Shown here one piece after another: positions 5,236 to 59,038 of a stretch of DNA of 64,000 bases. The stretch is from the NCBI GenBank assembly GCA_010356995.1, contig ML996687.1:1427803-1491802 (forward strand). Reading direction: 5' to 3'. Source of the DNA: Trichodelitschia bisporula. Lineage: Eukaryota. Within the stretch, counting starts at the first letter, position 1, and each line of letters begins with the position of its first letter. The notes under the pieces were generated by a model. It was not told the DNA's origin and searched no databases. It worked only from the letters and a program-made list of their open reading frames with translations. A program made the translations under genes and the position numbers.

Positions 5236-5336
5236 TCAAGGGCTGATCGAAAAAGTCACGTCCACCCCGGCGACATGACCGCTGCCAAATTTTGGTGAAG
5301 GTAGGACCTGACTTTTTCGGGTACCGTAGCCCTTGA
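5236..5336. mobile_element. Palindromic ~100-bp dispersed element (MITE-like), copy 1
   Basis: Arms TCAAGGGCT..GAAAAAGTCA..GTCC and GGAC..TGACTTTTTC..AGCCCTTGA are complementary. Aligns, including the central loop, with 30539-30635 and 59897-59984. Mobility is inferred. Confidence 0.75.
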
Positions 5337-5805
5337 CCCTCTCACAAAGCAAAAGGCAACCTCCCACGCGCGCCCTTCCAAAGACTCCGCGAACACCACC
5401 CGCTCGCCGCATTGCGTGCTCAATTCCCCCCCCATCGCATTATCAGGTACACGTACCAACGCACGTTGCGTACTACGTAACATACTGTGGTATGGTGTCG
5501 GCCGTTCCAAGCAAGCACACACCATAGCGACAGCCTATGACGCAACCGAGCCTCCGTTCCTGACGCGGCCCCAGCTGGCGAGCGGAAGCGGCTGCTGCAG
5601 GGCCCGCAGGTGCAGCGCGTGGGGCGGCGCGCGCTTCCCAGCCGCGCGCTAAATACGAGGCGTAACTCACCACGTAGGACCAGACTTGTGGTTATCACGA
5701 CCATAGGGTTCGAGTCCTGACTAAGGAAGCTCTCTCGGGTATTCCATAGCATTACGGCGCCATGCAGCGCATTGATATCGTCCTCTCCACCCCCACCACG
5801 GCCAC

Positions 5806-30538: not shown

Positions 30539-30635
30539 CGGAGGGCTAATCGAAAAAGTCATGTCCCTACCCGCCGAGAGACCTCTGCCAAAATTCAGGT
30601 GGAGGGGCGGCATGACTTTTTCTGGTAGCCCTTGA
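30539..30635. mobile_element. Palindromic ~100-bp dispersed element, copy 2
   Basis: AGGGCTAATCGAAAAAGTCATGTCC..GGCATGACTTTTTCTGGTAGCCCTTGA. Similar to 5236-5336 along its whole length. Confidence 0.75.
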
Positions 30636-30864
30636 TCTTACTCAGCCAGTCCGCGGTCTGCTGCTGGTCTCTCCCAGTAGCACACGTCAGAAGTTGTGGA
30701 TATATAGAAGGCAGATAGACATGCGTAGACAGCTCTAGACCCGAAGGCCATGCTGCTATCACACGGAGCATCATCACTTGTACTCCAGCACACACATTAG
30801 GGGCAAATTTAATCCCATATTCATCCACCATCTCACCTCCCACCTATCCGAACCAACCCAACAC

Positions 30865-39210: not shown

Positions 39211-39991
39211 ATGCCTCCACACACCATAATCCTAATCCGCCACGCCCAAGCCGAACACAACATCTCCCAAAACTACACCCTCCCCGACCCACCCCTCTCC
39301 CCTCTCGGCCTCCGCCAACTCCCCCACCTAACCCACGCCCTCCGCACCTCCCCCCTCGCTGCGCAGATCACCACCCTCCTCACCTCCCCCGCAACCCGCA
39401 CCCTCCAAACAACACAAGCCGTCCTCGCCGCCCTGCCCACGCCCCACGCCGTAACCCTCGAGCTTCGGCCAGAATGGCAAGGTACGTAGCACCTTTCCCC
39501 CCCCCCCTATTCCTTCCTTCACCAACGAGAAAGAAAACAGCGCCATGCCCTGCGACACGCCCTCCCTCGCCAGCGTGCTACGCCCGCGCTTTCCTAGCCT
39601 AGCATCTCCGCCCTGGGAGACCGATCCCTGGGCTCCGCTGATGGCGGCGGGGGAGTATACGTCTAAGACGGGACCGTGGGCGCCGGATGCAGCTGCGCTA
39701 AGGGAGCGCGCGCGGCTGGTTCTAGGGGATTTGGGCTCGAGGGAGGGGACGGTGGGCGTTGTGGCGCATCAGGGGTTTTTGCAGGTTGTGACGGGTGAGG
39801 GTGGCGGTGGGGAGGGGGTTAGGTGGGAGAATGGGGAGGGGAAGGCTTTTGGGCTTGAGGTGGGGAGTGAGAGTGACGGGAGCGTTAGGCTCGTGCCGAA
39901 AGAGGGCGGGTGGGTATTGCCGGATGCTGAGGAGGGCGGGAATCAGCCTGCTGAGAGGGAGGCGGAAGCGGCTGTGGAGGAGGTTTCGTAA
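39211..39991 (+). CDS. Histidine phosphatase / phosphoglycerate mutase-like protein
   Basis: RHAQAEHN, SPATRTLQT, VVAHQG. Intron 39482-39533 (AAG acceptor) yields WQENSAMPCDT. Confidence 0.88.
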
Positions 39992-40360
39992 GGGGGATGA
40001 TGTGATGGGAGCAACGGCTCAATACGCGCTGCAGGGCAGCTGTAAACCTGAAGATTGAAGTGAAGACAAAGAGGGAAAAAGAGTCTCTGACTCTCGACAC
40101 TTAGATACACGATGCCAAGTATCCCCCTTTGCTCCTTCCTTCTATCATGCGCTCATTACATCATGTCTCTTAGTATGCTCCTTCCTGACAGCAGTGCTCC
40201 TTCCATATCTACATCAGCCGATGATTACGCTGACTCTTCATATATACCTCTCGCTATCGGTCATGAAAGGCCGGCTTCCCCATCCATTTGCGGCGGCGTC
40301 AGCAAGGAATGAGTTCAGACCGCGTAATACTGAAATTTTATGTATCCGGCTTCGGGTGTG

Positions 40361-40597
40361 CTTGGTAACACGACCTTCGAAGTTCTCGGTTACCCGGCTC
40401 CATTTACTTGGCTTACCCGGCTCTCCAGACACTCGGTTACCCGGCTCCGTCCATGCCCGCTTACCCGGCCATATATGACTCGGTTACCCGGCTCTTCAAC
40501 ACGTCCAGTTACCCGACTCCATGTGCTCGCTTACCTGGCTTTACAAGTCCTCAGTTACCCGGCCGCGTATACACTCAGTTACCCAGCTCTCCCTCGC
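40361..40597 (+). repeat. Array 1: ten ~24-bp units with core CTCGGTTACCCGGC and variable ~9-nt spacers
   Basis: Unit lengths 22-25 nt; seven exact TTACCCG. Confidence 0.92.
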
Positions 40598-40826
40598 ATT
40601 CCGTTCGCCGGCGCGTCTAGCTGCCTCCGACAACCCAAGTTCCCACAGTGCTCAGAAAACCAGCTTCCAGATACATTCATCCCCACCAGTATCAACGCGA
40701 GCACTAGCCTTCGTAGTAGTTCTTCACTGCCGCTTTGCTAGAAATACATTGGTGAATCTCTAAACACTATTACATATCCCGTACCCAAACGCCACGCAAT
40801 GATACCCGACTCTAGCGACCAACCCC

Positions 40827-43292
40827 CTATCCCAATACCGCAGCCACTGTCCCTGCAACAGTTACCCACCACCATTGCCAGGCGCGCACTAACTCCCCTG
40901 CGTTCTTCGCCGGCTTTGCCTTGGAAGACCCAGTTCCAGCTCCAGTTCCAGAGCTTCCCCCAGAGTCTCCGCCCCCTCCAGAGCCCCAGCTCCCTCCAGG
41001 ACCCTCCGACATGTCGTTCCCTTCAGTCCCGGAACTACTTATACCGCCAGCTCCACCCTTCCCTCCACCCGCACCTCCGCCTCCCACCGCTCCGCCCTCC
41101 CTTCCTCCCCCTTGTCCTCTCCCGCCACCCTCACCGCTACTCCCACCAGCATTCGCCCCTCCAAACACTATATCCGCCAAATCTCCTCGCCCGGCACCCA
41201 CTAACATCTCCGGCGTAAGCACGACCTCGGCCACGGCCCCATCAGTCGGCCCTCCTCTCCCACTTCCTCCCCTTACACTCCCTCTCCCGCTTTGCCCGCC
41301 TGTCCCGCCACTCCCACTCTCCGTCCCGGGCCTCCCCTCTCCACCCCCTCTGGCACCGGTTCCCTCGCCCTCCACCCTGGGTCGTCCCACACCTCCCCCT
41401 CCCTCTCCGCCGCTCCCGCCCTCCGCTCCAGGGCTTCCACCTCCTCCCCCACCCCCTCCGCCGCTCCAACCCTCCGCTCCAGGCCTTGTCCCTCCCCCGT
41501 CCCCTCCGCCACTCCCGCCCTCCGCTCCAGGCCGCCCCCCTCCCCGCCCGCCAGCAACCCCCATATCCGTCCACCCAACCGTCACCCCCCTCGCCCAATC
41601 CACCGCAGTCAGCACCACGCCAGCGGTCCCTGCACTCAGCACCACGCCATTCGCCGTCACCGCCGCGCCCGACGCGAGAGTAATATCCCCACGGGGCCGC
41701 GCGCTAGGGGCCGCCGGCTCAGGCTGCGCCCTCGGACCAGGCGCCAGAGTCGGGCCCGGCCCGGGCAGCGGCACACTCCCCGGTCTAGCCTCAGGCACGT
41801 CATCAAGTCCCGGCTCGTCAGACGCCGCCAGACTCCCCACGCCAGGCGTGGGCGCTAGCGCAGACGGCAGGGCCTGCACGTCGGCAGTGCTAAAAACGCG
41901 CGGCGGGTCGACGAGGCGGAATATCGTGTTCCAGGTGCAGTCAGCCCACTCGGGCCACAGAGTAGGGATGATGTCGTTGCTCAAGGCGATGGCATAGAGG
42001 TAATGCCCGTTGTAGGCAAGCCAATCAGTCCAACTTTCGAGAGCCGGTCCCAATCCGGCGGCCTTTACCGTCTGCTGAAAGCCCCAGATGTTCTCGCCAG
42101 GGTCCCTGGGTCGTGGGGCTGTGCCCTCGTATGCGGCATTGAGCGCGCTGAAGGGCACGGGCGGCGCGAGGTCCGCAAAATTCAGCCTCTCGGGGCGCGC
42201 GTTGAAGCGCAGCGTACTGAGCGCGCTACTCGGCAGTGCAATAAGGACGTCTGTCCGCGATGCTTCCCACCGCGGGGGACCAACCCGCAATGCAATCAAC
42301 GTTGCAATGCGCACGTACGCCAGCGACGCCCACAGCGTGGTGCCCGCCGTCACGACAGAGCCCGTGCGGGGCACGGTGCGGGTTCCGGTGAGTGGCGTCG
42401 GGCTGTGGGCGCACATGTCGCGCCCAGCCACGGCGGCGGGGTCCGCGCCGAAGTGCCACACCTCCACGTCCTCGCCCCTAAGGTTGCAGCCGTACTGGCC
42501 GGGGCCGTCGAGGTTCAGGCAGAAGCGCGGGAGGGGTGCGCTGGCTGGCGAGGCGTACCACGCATCCCACTCTGCTGCCGAGACCACGGCGTCCTCGGGC
42601 GCAGCGAGGTCGCAGTTCAAGGGGTAGTTGGGCTGCAGTGAGGGCGGGGTAATCATTGTGGTGTAGACGGCTGGGATGTAGGTTGTAGGTGTGGGGAGAA
42701 TGTCCCCGGTAAAGTAGGTGAGGGTGCCGCAGGCGACGGAGGTGGAGAAGGGTGTTGGGATCCACATCGTGGAGGTTGTGTAGCACGGCTCCATCGTGTT
42801 GAGGAATGGCTCTCCAAGGTCTGGGCATGCGGGGTGGATGGATAGGGCGAGGGTGAGGGTTGTGAGCGGGACGGGTTTGACGAAGGCGGTACACTGAGTA
42901 GAAAAGGATACTACGCCGAAGCTGTCGACTGTGTCCCAATTTGTGGCATCACAGCTCGCCCCCGTTCGCCATGATACGTAGGGTGCAATGATGTCGCTAC
43001 CTGGCGCTTTGGTCCATTCGAGCCCTTCCGTTTGCCACGATACGGAGGATGCGATGATATCGCTGCCCGACCCTTTGGTGATCCATTCGGGCACTGCTGT
43101 ACTCCAGGGTTCACGATAACCAATGCTGCCATTGCCTGGCGTTTCGGCCGTCCATTCGGGCAACACTTGACCGGTCGTATTCTCGTTGCTAGTTGTGTTC
43201 TGCGGCAGGGGGTATGGCGGTATGTCCGTCGCTCGCGCCGTCACAGTGAGAACTGTGAGCAACCACATCTGTATTGGACCCAGACGAGCCAT
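40827..43292 (-). CDS. Large secreted, probably GPI-anchored cell-surface protein with Gly-rich repeats (821 aa)
   Basis: Intronless ORF with signal peptide, Cys/Trp-containing globular region, GGxRPGAEGGSGG repeats (about 41300-41550) and a hydrophobic C-terminal tail. Confidence 0.82.
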   Translation of the reverse strand: MARLGPIQMWLLTVLTVTARATDIPPYPLPQNTTSNENTTGQVLPEWTAETPGNGSIGYREPWSTAVPEWITKGSGSDIIASSVSWQTEGLEWTKAPGSDIIAPYVSWRTGASCDATNWDTVDSFGVVSFSTQCTAFVKPVPLTTLTLALSIHPACPDLGEPFLNTMEPCYTTSTMWIPTPFSTSVACGTLTYFTGDILPTPTTYIPAVYTTMITPPSLQPNYPLNCDLAAPEDAVVSAAEWDAWYASPASAPLPRFCLNLDGPGQYGCNLRGEDVEVWHFGADPAAVAGRDMCAHSPTPLTGTRTVPRTGSVVTAGTTLWASLAYVRIATLIALRVGPPRWEASRTDVLIALPSSALSTLRFNARPERLNFADLAPPVPFSALNAAYEGTAPRPRDPGENIWGFQQTVKAAGLGPALESWTDWLAYNGHYLYAIALSNDIIPTLWPEWADCTWNTIFRLVDPPRVFSTADVQALPSALAPTPGVGSLAASDEPGLDDVPEARPGSVPLPGPGPTLAPGPRAQPEPAAPSARPRGDITLASGAAVTANGVVLSAGTAGVVLTAVDWARGVTVGWTDMGVAGGRGGGRPGAEGGSGGGDGGGTRPGAEGWSGGGGGGGGGSPGAEGGSGGEGGGGVGRPRVEGEGTGARGGGEGRPGTESGSGGTGGQSGRGSVRGGSGRGGPTDGAVAEVVLTPEMLVGAGRGDLADIVFGGANAGGSSGEGGGRGQGGGREGGAVGGGGAGGGKGGAGGISSSGTEGNDMSEGPGGSWGSGGGGDSGGSSGTGAGTGSSKAKPAKNAGELVRAWQWWWVTVAGTVAAVLG

Positions 43293-53588: not shown

Positions 53589-54216
53589 TTACAAGGCCAC
53601 ACCGAACAAACCCCCAAGCAGCACACACACACCCACAACACCCCACTCCTTGCCCACACGCATAACCGCCGCCGCACTCTTCGCCGACGCACTCGCACTA
53701 GGGCTGCTCGTGCCAGAGGACGAACCGGTAGCGCTCGAACCCGAAGCAGACGCCGACGACGTACCGGAGGGACCCTTAATCCCCGCGGTTGCGTTCTTGC
53801 GGCCGCACAGGAAGGACTGGCAGAAGGTCTGACCGGCGAGATCGTTGGGGTGGGCGGCGGTGCACTGCGCAACCCAGTTGTCGCACTCGAGGGAGGGGAG
53901 CGTTTGCGCGTAGTCGCTGATGTTGGGCGTGTTGCCGGTCAGACAGGTGCAGGTGAAGGTGAGCTTGGTCTGGAGGGGGAGATTAGTATTTGGGGGGATG
54001 GGATGGGGTGGGGGGACGTACCGAGTCGCAGGTGTTCTCCTTCGTCTGGCCGTTGCAAACCTCGGGGCAGGTGTTCGTCTGAGCGCGGCACCACGACGCG
54101 CGCGTAGGACCGTCAACGCTGTTCGGCTCGATGTTGCAGCAGGATGTGAAGTTTGACTGGGCGGTGGTGGCACCGATGAGGGCCGCGCAGCCGACGAGGA
54201 AGGTTGAGAAGCGCAT
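53589..54216 (-). CDS. Small Cys-rich secreted, GPI-anchored protein
   Basis: Signal peptide, about 12 Cys, Ser-rich stalk and GPI-like tail; intron 54021-53970. Confidence 0.88.
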
Positions 54217-56218
54217 TGTGAGTTGTGGTATGGATAACTGGTTGCGGGGGGTTAGGTTAGAAGGATTTGGGGGGTGTGGTTTTTTTTTGGGTTCGTGAGA
54301 GGTGAGGATTGGGGATTGGGAGGGGGCGTGGAGCTGTGGTGCGCGACGGCCCGTGATAAAGAGCTTCGTTGCGCCGCAGAGCTACCGTTGCTGCTGCAGC
54401 TTGTGCCGCCAAGCCGCGTACCCAGGAGGCGGGCGAGGCGCGGGATTGGATGGGGTGGGGGGCTGGGGAATGCAGATTGGCGGCTTACCTTGGTTTTTAG
54501 AGGCGGCTGGTGGTGTGGGATGCAGAAGCTTGGTTTTTTTGTACGCTTGCTTTGCAGGAGGCGGGGGAGTGAGGAGGTAGGGAAACGTTTGGCGGGGGAG
54601 AGTGAGATGCGGGTTTGGGTGGAGATGGGGGGTGGTGGGAGAGAAGAAGAAGAACAAGAAGAATCTCGCGAACCTCGGAGTGGGGGGGGGGGAATGCAGG
54701 AACTTTATGCCACTGAACAAAAGTGGCAGAAAGCGCAAAGCGAACCGCCCGCCGGTTATCCTTCACTAGCTCCGAGAATCAAAGGCAAGGCGCATTGACT
54801 CTGGCCAGCGGAAATTGGCCCTTGCTTTGCTTGCTTGAGTCGTTCTGGGAAGCGGAAAGCGGAAAGTTGAATTGGAAGTGGAAGTTGGAGATCCGAAGCA
54901 GCAAGCGATGCCCACCCAGCAGAACGATGCAGGTTGCGCCTCTTTTTTCCTCTTCCCTCCATTTGTTTGCCATTTCTCTCCTCCTCAACAACCAGCCCTT
55001 TCTGCTTCCGTGCATGCTTATCGGCGCTGAGGCCGCGTATTGCCCCGAGCTGGCTTGCGACACTAGTCCCGTTTGTGGATAATTGCCCGCCGGCGCAACA
55101 ACAGGATGGAGTCGTCTGATCTCACGATGTTGAGGGTGCCCAGCAATAATGCGGTTCTTGAGGCTTTACAGACGCGTTGACTACGACACTTGGCCTGCCT
55201 TGCATCGGAGCACATGCGTCTCGGCATTCTCTATCCGCGGACACCTCATACTCGTACCTTTTTGTCGCCGATGGAACTGAATTGCGTTTGCCCTCCATAA
55301 CTACCCCGTGAATGTTTAATTCCATCTCAACCACCACCAAGCTCCTGCAATCTGCTCATCCGCAAGACCTCTCCTCCTCATTGAACCTTCCCACCACTCC
55401 GTCAACCTCAGTCTCTCCCTCACTCCCCGAAATCCGGTGCACATTCAGCTGACTTCATCCCCATCGCCGCCGCCCCGCCGTTCGACGCGTCGCACTCGAT
55501 CTCGAACCCCACCCACTGACGCGAATCAAGCTTTCCCGCCAAGCCCCTATCATGCACCACCATGATAGGCGCCCATGCAATTGGTCCAGGAACGCCTACC
55601 GTCGCAGCGAATGACACCCGCCTCCGCTTAACGTTGTTAAACCGCCACAGTTTGAACTTCGTCAACCGTCGCGGGTGTTGCTGGAGCCACGTCCGCTGGA
55701 ACTGCTGTTGGCTCGGCGCAGGCAGCGTACGGATGTAGAAACCGGAGTTCCACCGCTTGTCCATGTCGAGCTCCGCGCGAACAGGATACCATTGTGGCGT
55801 CAATTTGCGATGACGGCAACCGCGCGAACGGCGTCGCTATCACTAGCCCATCTCTGCGAAATTTGTGGCGCAGACCACGACGCCGGGCGTGCGCCTGTTT
55901 GTGATGTCGGCAGCGTTGCTTTGGCAGCGGCCGATCGCCGCACGTGGCTGGGAATCAAAGCACACCGCCGCCCCGCTGCATGCCTTACCATCGGGCAAAG
56001 TTCGTCCTCGCGTCGACCCGAGTTTAGCGTCTGCCGCTTCCTTTTCCGGATGTCTCTGCTCTTTTGGTTCGGGAGTTTAGCGTCCACTTCCCGCTGTTAA
56101 CGCCCGGCCCGACGCGAGCCAATCTCCCCTCCTCCGACTTCTGCGCACCCGGTCTGCATACTGTACTTCCGTATGCATGTGGGTTACGAGTCTGCGGTTT
56201 TGGAGCATCAAGTGGACA

Positions 56219-56303
56219 GCCTGGGTAGCTCAATCGGTAGAGCGTGTGACTCTTACACCAAGGGATTATCTCAAGGTCGCGGGTTCGAGCCCCGCCTCGG
56301 GCT
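56219..56303 (+). tRNA. tRNA-Lys (CTT) with 12-nt intron (56256-56267)
   Basis: Cloverleaf: acceptor GCCTGGG/CTCGGGC, A-box TAGCTCAATCGG, anticodon CTT at 56252-56254, B-box GGTTCGAGCC. The intron sits at the canonical 37/38 position. Confidence 0.88.
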
Positions 56304-57263
56304 GGAGTTGTGTGCGGTTCTCTTGATGCCTGAAAGGTCCGTTAAGGGACCGCAGCGGGTGCATGCGTGTAGCATGTGAAGTAGAGCTTTACACGACTGT
56401 CTTTTTTTTGCAGTTTTGAGGCAATTGCAGGGGAGTCAGTGACGACTGGGGAAGTGAGAAAGTTGCTGATGGAGTCGAGGACGTACGCTTTAAGGATCTT
56501 TCTGTGGGCGAAGAGTGTTAAGTAGAGAATGTGCTCACGAATTTTGCAGATTTTGCTCCTTCCATTTTGACCTCTGAGTGACGTCAGTTCTGTCCCGCGG
56601 CCACGCATTTGAATTCTCACTTCGCCTCTCATGAATAAACTCAATGCCTCTACTTCTTGTTCATGAAGGGTAGGGGGGTACTGAGGTTGAACCGGCACGT
56701 CAGCCTACGCTTCGAGACGCTATATACCCACGATACACGCAGCCCATGGCGCCTACACTGCGTGAAGCTGGTAATCGCACCATCCATCCCGCTTGGTTTA
56801 TTTTGAGAAAAGTTTCTTCTCGTACGAGAGCTCGTCATCCGCACAGTTATCCGAGGTCTCCCAGTACTTAGGGCGAGCAGAGCCGACGAAGAATGGAGCA
56901 AAACACCGAGCATGATGTGAACTTAAGGAAGGGGCATTGGTGTCCCTGGAAGGAACTTTCTTACTGAGGAAGTGACATATGGCAAGACTGGAAGGAACGC
57001 TGGGTAAGCTCGGAAGGAGCATACGTAGCAAGCATGATAAGTAGACTTGACTACCCTGCCGCTCACCTTTTTTGTTCTTTGTCGTCGATTTTACTCTCAA
57101 TCATGCACTTGTTTTGCACACGAGCCGCAGTGACGCTTCCATGTGAGGATTTTATGACCAGCTGTCTCCAGCTGCAAATCAACCCTCACAGCGGGTCACT
57201 TCTTCCTCCTAGTCCTCATGTGGCATAGAAGCGGGATTCCCACGCCGTCTCGATCATCACGAC

Positions 57264-57507
57264 TGCCCGGGAAGTCGGGTAACCGTCTACTTTCACAGCT
57301 GAGTACTAAAGCGCTTTTAAAGCCGGACAACTGACCACTGCTAGAGATCGGGTAACCGAGACCATCCAGAAGCCGTCCTGCCGCATCGTCGGGAAACGGG
57401 ATGACCGAGCAGATACGGGGGCCGGGTAACCTAGTTCTTCCAGGATCGGGTAACTGAGTCCGTACGGAACCGGGTGATACGAACCCGTCCAAAGCCAGGC
57501 AACCAGC
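57264..57507 (-). repeat. Array 2: ten ~24-bp units of the same CTCGGTTACCCG family, inverted relative to array 1
   Basis: CGGGTAAC occurs at 57276, 57349, 57423 and 57447, with more degenerate units in 24-25 nt register. Confidence 0.85.
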
Positions 57508-57530
57508 CATCCCTCTTCGCCGCTCGCCCT

Positions 57531-59038
57531 CTACTTCTGAATCACATAAAACCCACCAACCTCGACCAACAACGCACTCACCGCCGCGAAACTCCCAAGC
57601 CACCCCACGAGCGGCCCAATCACCAGCCCCAACAAGCAATGCCGCACCACCGTTCCCCACGGCAGACCCGCATCATAATCCTGTACAAGCACCCCCCATG
57701 CCATTCCCGCGAGACTGAACCCGTTCTCAAGACACAGCATCAGCAACAGCCACCAGGGCAAGCGGCGCGGCCCACCCGAGGCCAGAAAATAGAGCCGTCT
57801 GTAGCCGTTAGCTCGCGGCGAGATAAAGGAGGGAGGAAGTACAAAAGTCCTTCAGCCAGTCCCCAAGCCCACGTCAGGATATACACCCGCGCGCACACCT
57901 CGCCCATGCTCCACAGCCCCGCCGCCCAGCGCCGACGCTGGCGCACGAAATCCGCTAGGCTGGTGGGAGGCTGCTCCCGCGCGATGGCGGGGATCCAGCC
58001 TAGCTTGTAGCCGCGCTTCTGGGCTTCAACACCAAACCAATAGTCCTCGGCCAAACAGCCGGTCTCCCACCCTATCTCGCACTCCGCCCCGCCCCGGACA
58101 AGCAACCAACTCCCATGCAAGCCCCACACGCTGCGCCCCGCCCATACGCATTGCCAACTGTACCGGCCCCAGTCCTCGCCTGCCCTGGCGCAGTCTGCTA
58201 CAGTCCATAGCGACGACGACCAGTGCGCGTACGCGTTGTATTGCAGCACACCCTGCGCCATGTCGACCTCACCCCGGGCCGCGACCGCGCGTGCCGCCGC
58301 CAGCGCGTGGGCGTCCAGTACCGTTTCTTCGTCGAGGTGTAGGATCCAGTCGTCCGCGCCGGGTCGGGTGACGGAGAGGAAGAAGGAAAGTGCACGGGCT
58401 TTGTGCTGCGCAACAGGGGGGAGGTAGGTGTCCGGGATGACGTGGAGGGTTATGTACGGGTGGGAGGTGAGCGCGTGGAAGCGCCCCGTTGTACCCGGTT
58501 CCGTCACGATGTGCAGTTCCGCGGGGAGGATGGATGATTGAGCTGCTGAGAGGGACGGGAGGAGCGCGGCGACGGAGCGGTGCACGGCACTGGCATTGCG
58601 CCCGCGCGTGACGAGGCAGAGGAGGAGGCGTGGGGGTGGTTCCGCTGGCTTCTCGGTCGGAGTACACTTTTCGGCCGGGCCGGACTTCGTGGCTAGAGGC
58701 TGCCCCGCGACCTCCAGGTTCAGCGGTAGGAGTAAGCAAGCACAGTTCACCCAGCCCAACCAGCGGGCGGGCACGATGGCGGCGAGCAGGAGGACGATAT
58801 CGAGGCGTGATGCTGGGATGGGCGTGCCGAGGTGCGGGAGGGCGTAGGTGAGCAGCGTGATGAGCGTGGCGAGGGTCAGGATGAAGGGTCGGAGGTAGCG
58901 TGCTGCGAGGTTGAGAGTGGCCTGCGTGTCGAAGGGTTTGCGGGGCGTGTCGTAGACGGTGCGGCAGAGCGTGGGCTTGCGTCTGCGGCGGGGGATGGTG
59001 AGGCCGGGGGCGGGGAGGTAGAGAATGGAGGTGAGCAT
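57531..59038 (-). CDS. GT2 glycosyltransferase, egghead/BRE-3 (beta-1,4-mannosyltransferase)-like
   Basis: KARAL, WILHLDEET, LAEDYWF, QRRRW. Intron 57842-57799 joins a TM C-terminus ending FYVIQK*. Confidence 0.85.

Follow-up and report, generated by a model that had tools for sequence, protein, structure and literature searches.

Dispersed head-to-tail arrays of a Reb1-type site in the filamentous fungus Trichodelitschia bisporula as candidate chromosomal barriers

The closest described counterparts of the arrays reported here are found in yeast subtelomeres and in ribosomal DNA. The subtelomeric STR/STAR elements of Saccharomyces cerevisiae (repeats of the X element) carry five to eight Reb1 consensus sites and, in the accessible parts of two papers, are suggested to restrict silencing and to terminate transcripts (PMC9531808, PMC3060084). 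The rDNA terminators, Ter2/Ter3 with Reb1 in Schizosaccharomyces pombe and the Sal boxes with TTF-1 in mammals, are polar blocks to polymerase and forks, and Reb1 can loop two Ter sites, according to the portion of a review available to us (PMC5368702). In budding yeast, Reb1 also acts as a Pol II roadblock behind genes or cryptic units, as described in the accessible sections of PMC5052057, and in S. pombe, Sap1 guides Tf1/Tf2 integration at fork barriers (same portion of PMC5368702).

Here, we describe a genome-wide class of about thirty head-to-tail arrays in T. bisporula that differ in period and spacers, but keep one core. A member of this class, array 1, lies in the window, that is, the whole 64-kb stretch of DNA that was analysed, on contig C1 (1427803-1491802) of a 25.8-Mb assembly with 44 contigs; spliced housekeeping genes and the kinship of the encoded proteins identify the source as a filamentous ascomycete. 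As stated in the initial annotation of this DNA, array 1 is flanked by convergent genes, the stops of which are located at 39991 (+) and 40827 (-):

39211..39991, + strand: histidine-phosphatase-superfamily gene (Pfam His_Phos_1, E 1.4e-11), 3' end toward array 1
40003..40216, + strand: solo LTR of 214 bp with TG...CA ends, 149 bp 5' of array 1 and on the same strand
40361..40597, + strand: array 1, nine good units and one decayed unit, head-to-tail, period 22-25 bp
40827..43292, - strand: ORF of 821 aa, no known family, convergent, stop 230 bp from array 1

Similar to STR/STAR elements, as far as the accessible texts describe these, several Reb1-type sites are clustered near chromosome-end-like DNA and are homologous between ends. 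Unlike STR/STAR elements, the Trichodelitschia sites are strictly periodic, arranged head-to-tail and border TE/NLR-rich DNA; about 22 internal clusters have other periods, and no assembled telomere repeat lies nearby. Array 1 is internal and therefore not an STR/STAR member. With the Ter and Sal-box arrays, the class appears to share tandem same-strand sites and the protein family, but its members, which are putative barriers, are dispersed among Pol II genes rather than placed in rDNA, and array 1 does not belong to this group either. The core and a position behind a gene or cryptic unit are likewise found at yeast roadblocks; however, these are mostly single sites without preferred orientation in the accessible sections cited above, whereas Trichodelitschia sites are in excess only in arrays. 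As in Sap1-guided integration, LTRs adjoin the putative sites of a barrier protein, although the protein is a different one, only 5 of 24 clusters have an LTR and most LTR copies lie without an array.

CRISPR and TIGR arrays also alternate a constant with a variable part, which they combine with acquired spacers, a structured repeat and a linked effector. The CRISPR likeness pointed out in the initial annotation extends to this pattern and is otherwise superficial: the spacers of array 1 measure 9-15 nt and are mutually related, its RNA shows no stable fold (no better than shuffles, z +1.06), it has no Rfam match, the class comprises many periods, and none of the 30 window ORFs scanned by Pfam is a CRISPR/TIGR effector gene. 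Its consensus core, the constraint on that core and the presence of an orthologue would instead place array 1 among Reb1-bound barriers. What appears to be new, beside the known STR/STAR and Ter/Sal-box arrays, is the dispersal of Reb1-site arrays in a filamentous fungus. No description of such arrays in filamentous fungi was found in the main texts of the mostly open-access literature, and a preprint on four plant-pathogenic fungi, in its accessible part, cites Reb1 by analogy only (10.1101/2021.04.16.439968).

The units of array 1 are built around a Reb1-type core, (G/C)TTACCCGG, starting at positions 40390, 40413, 40437, 40461, 40484, 40509, 40531, 40555 and 40579 (core-to-core spacings of 23, 24, 24, 23, 25, 22, 24 and 24); the tenth, decayed unit is located at 40366. 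A repeat with a kept core and a variable remainder had been read from the letters, and this is borne out by gapped pairwise alignment of the nine good units, in which the 7-nt core shows 15 substitutions at 252 positions (6%) compared to 189 at 552 (34%) elsewhere, while gap positions fall into the core in one of 96 cases and outside it in 95. In 200,000 redistributions, the best 9-column block was never as conserved as that of array 1, with the units anchored on the core in a way that favours this outcome. The proposed core of about 15 nt turned out to be too long, as the strictly conserved block spans about 9 nt and its 5' flank, CTCRG, is present in only six to eight of the nine units. Similarly, a loose alternation of spacer types is detectable, but weak (lag-2 score -0.86, lag-1 -2.0, lag-3 -0.33). 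The count of seven exact TTACCCG in the array is correct; four of these read GTTACCCGG, and the 64-kb window holds only four further exact copies outside arrays 1 and 2 (array 2 is introduced below).

The 401-bp stretch with array 1 is single-copy in the genome, and the 14-nt unit pattern is confined to array 1 genome-wide (four matches). Together with spacers and flanks that differ between loci, the single-copy stretch speaks against an origin as subterminal repeats of one element. A decayed octapeptide repeat, also suggested initially, can be set aside as well: the ORF of 133 codons that runs through array 1 has no Pfam match, and the cores fall in frames 2, 2, 1, 1, 1, 0, 1, 2, 2 and 2 and thus in three frames.

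Of the two flanking genes, the phosphatase gene has one intron near 39479-39530, as indicated by spliced contig joints, and uses two 3' splice sites (39531, 39539). An extra C at window position 39496, within a C run of this intron, on a DNA contig of run X1 is possibly an assembly slip or an allele. The 821-aa orphan has a hydrophobic N-terminus and a Gly/Ser-rich tail; it is without a Pfam match, and its Atlas matches all score below 0.9 and belong to Ascomycota clusters without names. Contigs of runs X3 and X4, which represent one RNA-like sample from one study (assembled contigs with spliced joints, not recorded as RNA), cover this ORF in part. Summed over the listed contig pieces, X3/X4 depth is 422/330 in the bin containing array 1 (39928-40591), 5.5/1.2 in the following bin (40592-41255) and 14.6/5.8 in the bin containing array 2 (57192-57855); LTR copies inflate the first of these values, and we count the depths neither for nor against termination. 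Elsewhere in the window, 53600-55100 (-) holds a spliced short-exon unit without a long ORF (joints 53969-54022 and 54237-54489), and a 105-bp sequence is about 75% alike at three places (window 5239-5344, window 30542-30644 and L015:1292-1395).

A genome-wide scan for the clustered core, as proposed in the initial annotation, revealed 85 matches for same-strand TTACCCG pairs with 2-32 bases between sites, compared to 15 for the reversed word; at 22-26 bp spacing, the difference was 15 versus 0. The 85 matches collapse to 47 clusters, 35 of which have 16-26 bp spacing. This corresponds to 1.36 clusters per Mb, about 7-fold above the 0.20 per Mb obtained for matched 7-mers (a mean over 3,297 similarly frequent words, taken in 547 kb, rather than a genome-wide rank). 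Pair spacings comprise 5 matches at 9-15 bp, 66 at 16-26 bp and 14 at 27-39 bp, several of the last group being doubled periods. Both the period (16, 17, 18, 19, 20, 21 or 23-24 bp) and the spacers are specific to the locus, and the exact sites within clusters lie on the same strand in 146 cases versus 4 on the opposite strand, about 94 of the 146 by construction. Single GTTACCCGG sites, in turn, are not enriched genome-wide (202 versus 175 for one control word), placing the signal in the clustering, and relaxing the pattern to TTAYCYG brought little gain beyond chance (96 versus 42). At several loci, clusters are found between convergent genes, which is at most suggestive of an enrichment there.

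The contig ends are a preferred location. Of the 47 clusters, 14 are found no more than 10 kb from a contig end, where 1.6 would be expected, and 13 of the 14 are directed outward (p=0.002), the exception being C24:330k, which is directed inward. The STR sites of yeast, in contrast, point inward. A 19-bp period occurs in 12 of the 13 outward arrays, and contig ends account for all 23 matches of this spacing; with this unit in common, the end arrays represent one family and not 13 independent events. Their 5' flanks are common to none of the 13, whereas 3' flanks are common to 11, and the shared 3' flank begins 43-234 bp from the array centre in ten end arrays. Located 5' are core genes (COG3, RTC, LAA1, peptidase M28, HAD hydrolase, kinase), while short repeats and DUF676/NB-ARC/TPR or PNP_UDP genes follow 3', these neighbours varying between sites. 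The end arrays are located at the transition between unique genes and LTR/NLR-rich DNA, and in 8 of 11 ends the observed/expected CpG ratio 3' of the array drops to 0.92 or less (two ends with N runs were dropped). The C11:921k cluster is a counter-example, having an NLR-type gene 5' instead of 3'. No (TTAGGG)2 telomere repeat was found in 20 contig-end stretches, and none of the three (TTAGGG)3 runs in the genome is terminal; the contig ends may be unassembled. Their repeat-rich domains may be subtelomeres, centromeres or islands, and the end arrays may be sequence-encoded chromosome boundaries.

Two further observations concern the same regions. A DUF676 + NB-ARC + TPR segment of 1-2.5 kb, 85-90% alike, recurs at many contig ends and is interrupted by short nested repeats (L081, L082, L083, L086, L089, L090, L093, L095). 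A link to Starship elements was considered and rejected, as no DUF3435 captain was present among 144 ORFs of at least 190 aa near 31 clusters (stubs could escape this threshold) and no 5S gene in the 14 contig-end stretches scanned.

Judged by homology, the genome encodes a Reb1 orthologue, L101 on contig C5. Among 16 Myb matches in the genome, it has S. pombe Reb1 as best PDB match (5eyb, E 4.8e-16), and related proteins carry the names REB1 or RNA polymerase I enhancer binding protein; the Pfam Reb1_MybAD profile matched nothing anywhere, controls included, and is uninformative. The lineages of S. cerevisiae and S. pombe bracket the filamentous ascomycetes, and the core of array 1 fits the Reb1 consensus known from both yeasts. 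Reb1 of S. cerevisiae binds TTACCCG(G) in the accessible sections of PMC5052057, in agreement with the initial reading of TTACCCG as the budding-yeast Reb1 site, and the S. pombe co-crystal, in the accessible part of PMC8970589, has a GGGTAA core with a domain that winds round two DNA turns. The mostly open-access literature held nothing on which sites Reb1 of a filamentous fungus prefers, and rDNA, which would be a positive control for termination, was not found in a strict first look (LSU rRNA without a match in the assembly). A two-Myb-repeat protein (L112/L114, C17 581k) presumably resembles the telomere-binding Tay1/Teb1 type.

We propose that the arrays are homotypic head-to-tail sites for a fungal Reb1/TTF1-type Myb protein. 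Each array would have grown by local tandem duplication, with spacers drifting and cores being kept thereafter. A period of 16-26 bp would provide space for one protein per unit, because Reb1 wraps two DNA turns, and a protein-loaded array could form a nucleosome-poor, protein-coated barrier that stops polymerase II, forks or heterochromatin. Most simply, array 1 would halt read-through of the phosphatase gene or LTR-derived transcripts before the convergent gene is reached; it may also stall forks. The 13 contig-end arrays would work in the same manner and demarcate core genes from repeat-rich DNA. That the array is bound by protein and under constraint we consider highly probable, and that this protein is Reb1 still likely; for a barrier as the main role, we estimate a probability of roughly 55%. 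The multi-site array for a Reb1-type Myb protein put forward initially is thereby strengthened by the orthologue and by the recurrence of the same core in arrays with unrelated spacers, while its function as terminator or insulator stays putative.

The most serious competitor is binding by another factor, such as a replication-origin, centromere, transposon/Starship or other Myb protein, with the Reb1-site match being coincidental or secondary. Such a factor would be compatible with the lacking enrichment of single sites, with the common 19-bp unit of end arrays that adjoin mobile DNA, with the further Myb proteins encoded in the genome and with repeat-rich ends that could be subtelomere, centromere or island. 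However, the invariant block coincides exactly with the Reb1 core and the genome contains an orthologue, and the captain and 5S scans reported above as well as the site-to-site variation of the 3' neighbours of end arrays speak against it. Overall, we regard this explanation as unlikely.

The arrays could also be neutral minisatellites, in which the core seeds slippage or escapes mutation and which persist, free of selection, wherever they are harmless. Each array having its own period is minisatellite-like, and unrelated metagenome contigs frequently carry perfect TTACCCGG minisatellites: scanning for triple TTACCCGG yielded at least 119 stretches, mostly near-perfect minisatellites among the matches viewed by eye, and no fungal counterpart was identified among the stretches listed. 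A single metagenome stretch with variable spacers (L230, 603 bp) is too short to place. Moreover, Reb1, once bound, changes how its site is damaged and repaired, according to the accessible part of PMC8970589, and this could bias mutation without selection. On the other side, cores are kept while spacers drift. Since the other arrays had been found via the core itself, we assessed its constraint in three ways. Interior units showed core mismatches at 7 of 266 positions versus 90 of 435 in spacers; after removal of the two ascertained exact units per array, 7 of 98 core positions were mismatched (p=0.001); and in arrays extended by spacer likeness alone, a procedure that admits false end units, the figures were 107/427 (25%) for the core versus 229/694 (33%) (p=0.005). 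The core is hence better kept than the spacers both in array 1 and in the other arrays; the outcome named initially as refuting a binding array, equal conservation of core and spacers, did not occur, which adds to the support for the initial reading. The missing excess below 16 bp, the 7-fold enrichment over matched words and the placement and polarity at contig ends further argue against neutral minisatellites, which we deem improbable.

The solo LTR next to array 1 had been missed in the initial annotation, as had array 2. It belongs to an old, dispersed family of about 215 bp with 79-86% identity (40 scored of 187 candidates) and eight copies in the 264 kb inspected. In at least 14 of 29 copies, the 5-bp flanks agree at four or five bases, a duplication count that is a floor given that several 5' ends were mis-called; the copy at 40003-40216 has no matching target-site duplication. 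No full-length element was identified for the family; the genome contains ten integrase-domain matches. Of 24 internal clusters, 5 have a solo LTR no more than 300 bp away, compared to seven other copies in 486 kb (p 0.0006-0.005, allowing for insertion confined to intergenic DNA), and all five LTRs lie on the array strand, four of them on the 5' side. As 28 of 30 aligned LTR copies are without a TTACCCG cluster, the array is not part of the LTR element; the DNA between LTR and array is not shared between loci.

LTR adjacency would also be expected if Reb1 arrays were chiefly open chromatin, that is, upstream activating or nucleosome-free platforms, with the barrier look and the LTRs following from insertion into attractive, open DNA. 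In the same line, the C5:1123k and C3:1573k arrays lie on the promoter side of an identified neighbour gene, and Reb1 sites are enriched in nucleosome-free regions in the accessible text of PMC9531808. Array 1, however, is flanked by stop codons on both sides and no promoter is apparent, and a promoter role would leave the outward polarity at contig ends unexplained, rendering open chromatin as the chief function quite improbable.

Array 2 and its surroundings provide a second locus within the window:

56913..57146, - strand: diverged solo LTR, 130 bp 3' of array 2 and on the same strand
57276..57483, - strand: array 2, decayed, 24-bp period, four exact cores
57531..59038, - strand: family-2 glycosyltransferase gene (Pfam Glyco_trans_2_3, E 5.5e-26), 5' end not fixed

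The stop of the glycosyltransferase gene (intron joint 57798-57843) is about 50 bp ahead of array 2. The LTR beside the array is 66% identical over 111 bp to a copy in L017 of the 40003-40216 family, and a second copy of this diverged type adjoins the C19:180.3k cluster. About 600 bp from the same LTR lies an intron-containing tRNA gene (56219-56303, +; Rfam RF00005), the anticodon of which reads CTT by eye; ARAGORN reported no tRNA in the window.

Array 2 faces array 1 at a distance of 17 kb. The two are alike (62% over about 125 bp) and, compared to 34 other internal clusters, match each other best (rank 1 of 34 in either direction). Further facing pairs are C3 1573.5k/1590.7k, C19 163.4k/180.3k and C1 538.4k/552.1k, although two facing pairs rest on two-site clusters. 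Three pairs within 20 kb are 16.9-17.2 kb apart (P=0.003 under random placement, chosen after the fact), the fourth about 13.5 kb, and the intervals contain ordinary genes where these were identified. Partner ranks by spacer likeness are 1/1, 5/8, 30/31 and 1/7 of 34 for the four pairs, meaning that partner spacers are alike only in the window pair and partly in C1 538k/552k. A general facing-pair rule was rejected, as only 1 of 10 further arrays checked had a facing partner. Separately, C11 carries two same-strand clusters 18.0 kb apart (921.9k and 939.9k), so that all four neighbour cluster pairs below 20 kb, the three facing ones and this one, span 16.9-18.0 kb; a 5S rRNA gene (L272:2511-2629) is located a few hundred bases 5' of the 921.9k cluster.

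A mobile-element remnant (the interior of an LTR retrotransposon or the inverted termini of a 17-kb element), a decayed peptide repeat or a small-RNA array is very improbable and largely refuted: arrays 1 and 2 are related and inverted, the five adjacent LTRs share the array strand, the LTR of array 1 lacks a target-site duplication and an ORF is open across the array, but nearly all aligned LTR copies are free of clusters, LTR-to-array DNA is unshared, the 17 kb between the arrays contain housekeeping genes and lie on single long DNA contigs of even depth, and the reading frames, Rfam result and folding score given above fit neither a peptide nor an RNA.

For the Reb1 barrier, some evidence points in the opposite direction. 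Single sites are not enriched, unlike what is seen for a general promoter factor, and two clusters lie on promoter sides. In the accessible parts of the yeast literature, Pol II roadblocks have no preferred Reb1 site orientation (PMC5052057), orientation dependence is only partial (PMC9531808), Reb1 does not significantly obstruct forks at subtelomeres according to a review (PMC5368702), and it is not an enhancer blocker (PMC4551913). A more far-reaching version, which we consider doubtful, would be a polar boundary code, in which Reb1 would work almost only in arrays born by recurrent duplication, fence off TE/NLR DNA, direct LTR insertion to flanking DNA and establish loops or fork traps of 13-17 kb between facing pairs, similar to convergent CTCF sites of animals.

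To our knowledge, how core genes are sharply separated from repeat-rich, fast-evolving compartments in filamentous fungi is an open question, and few cis-elements are known for it. Should binding fail, the finding would reduce to an unusual class of minisatellites. As it stands, the arrays combine a named candidate protein and a short site with a fixed orientation at 13 parallel borders, plus internal copies that can be manipulated, and would represent recurrent birth of binding sites by tandem duplication, at differing periods above a 16-bp floor.
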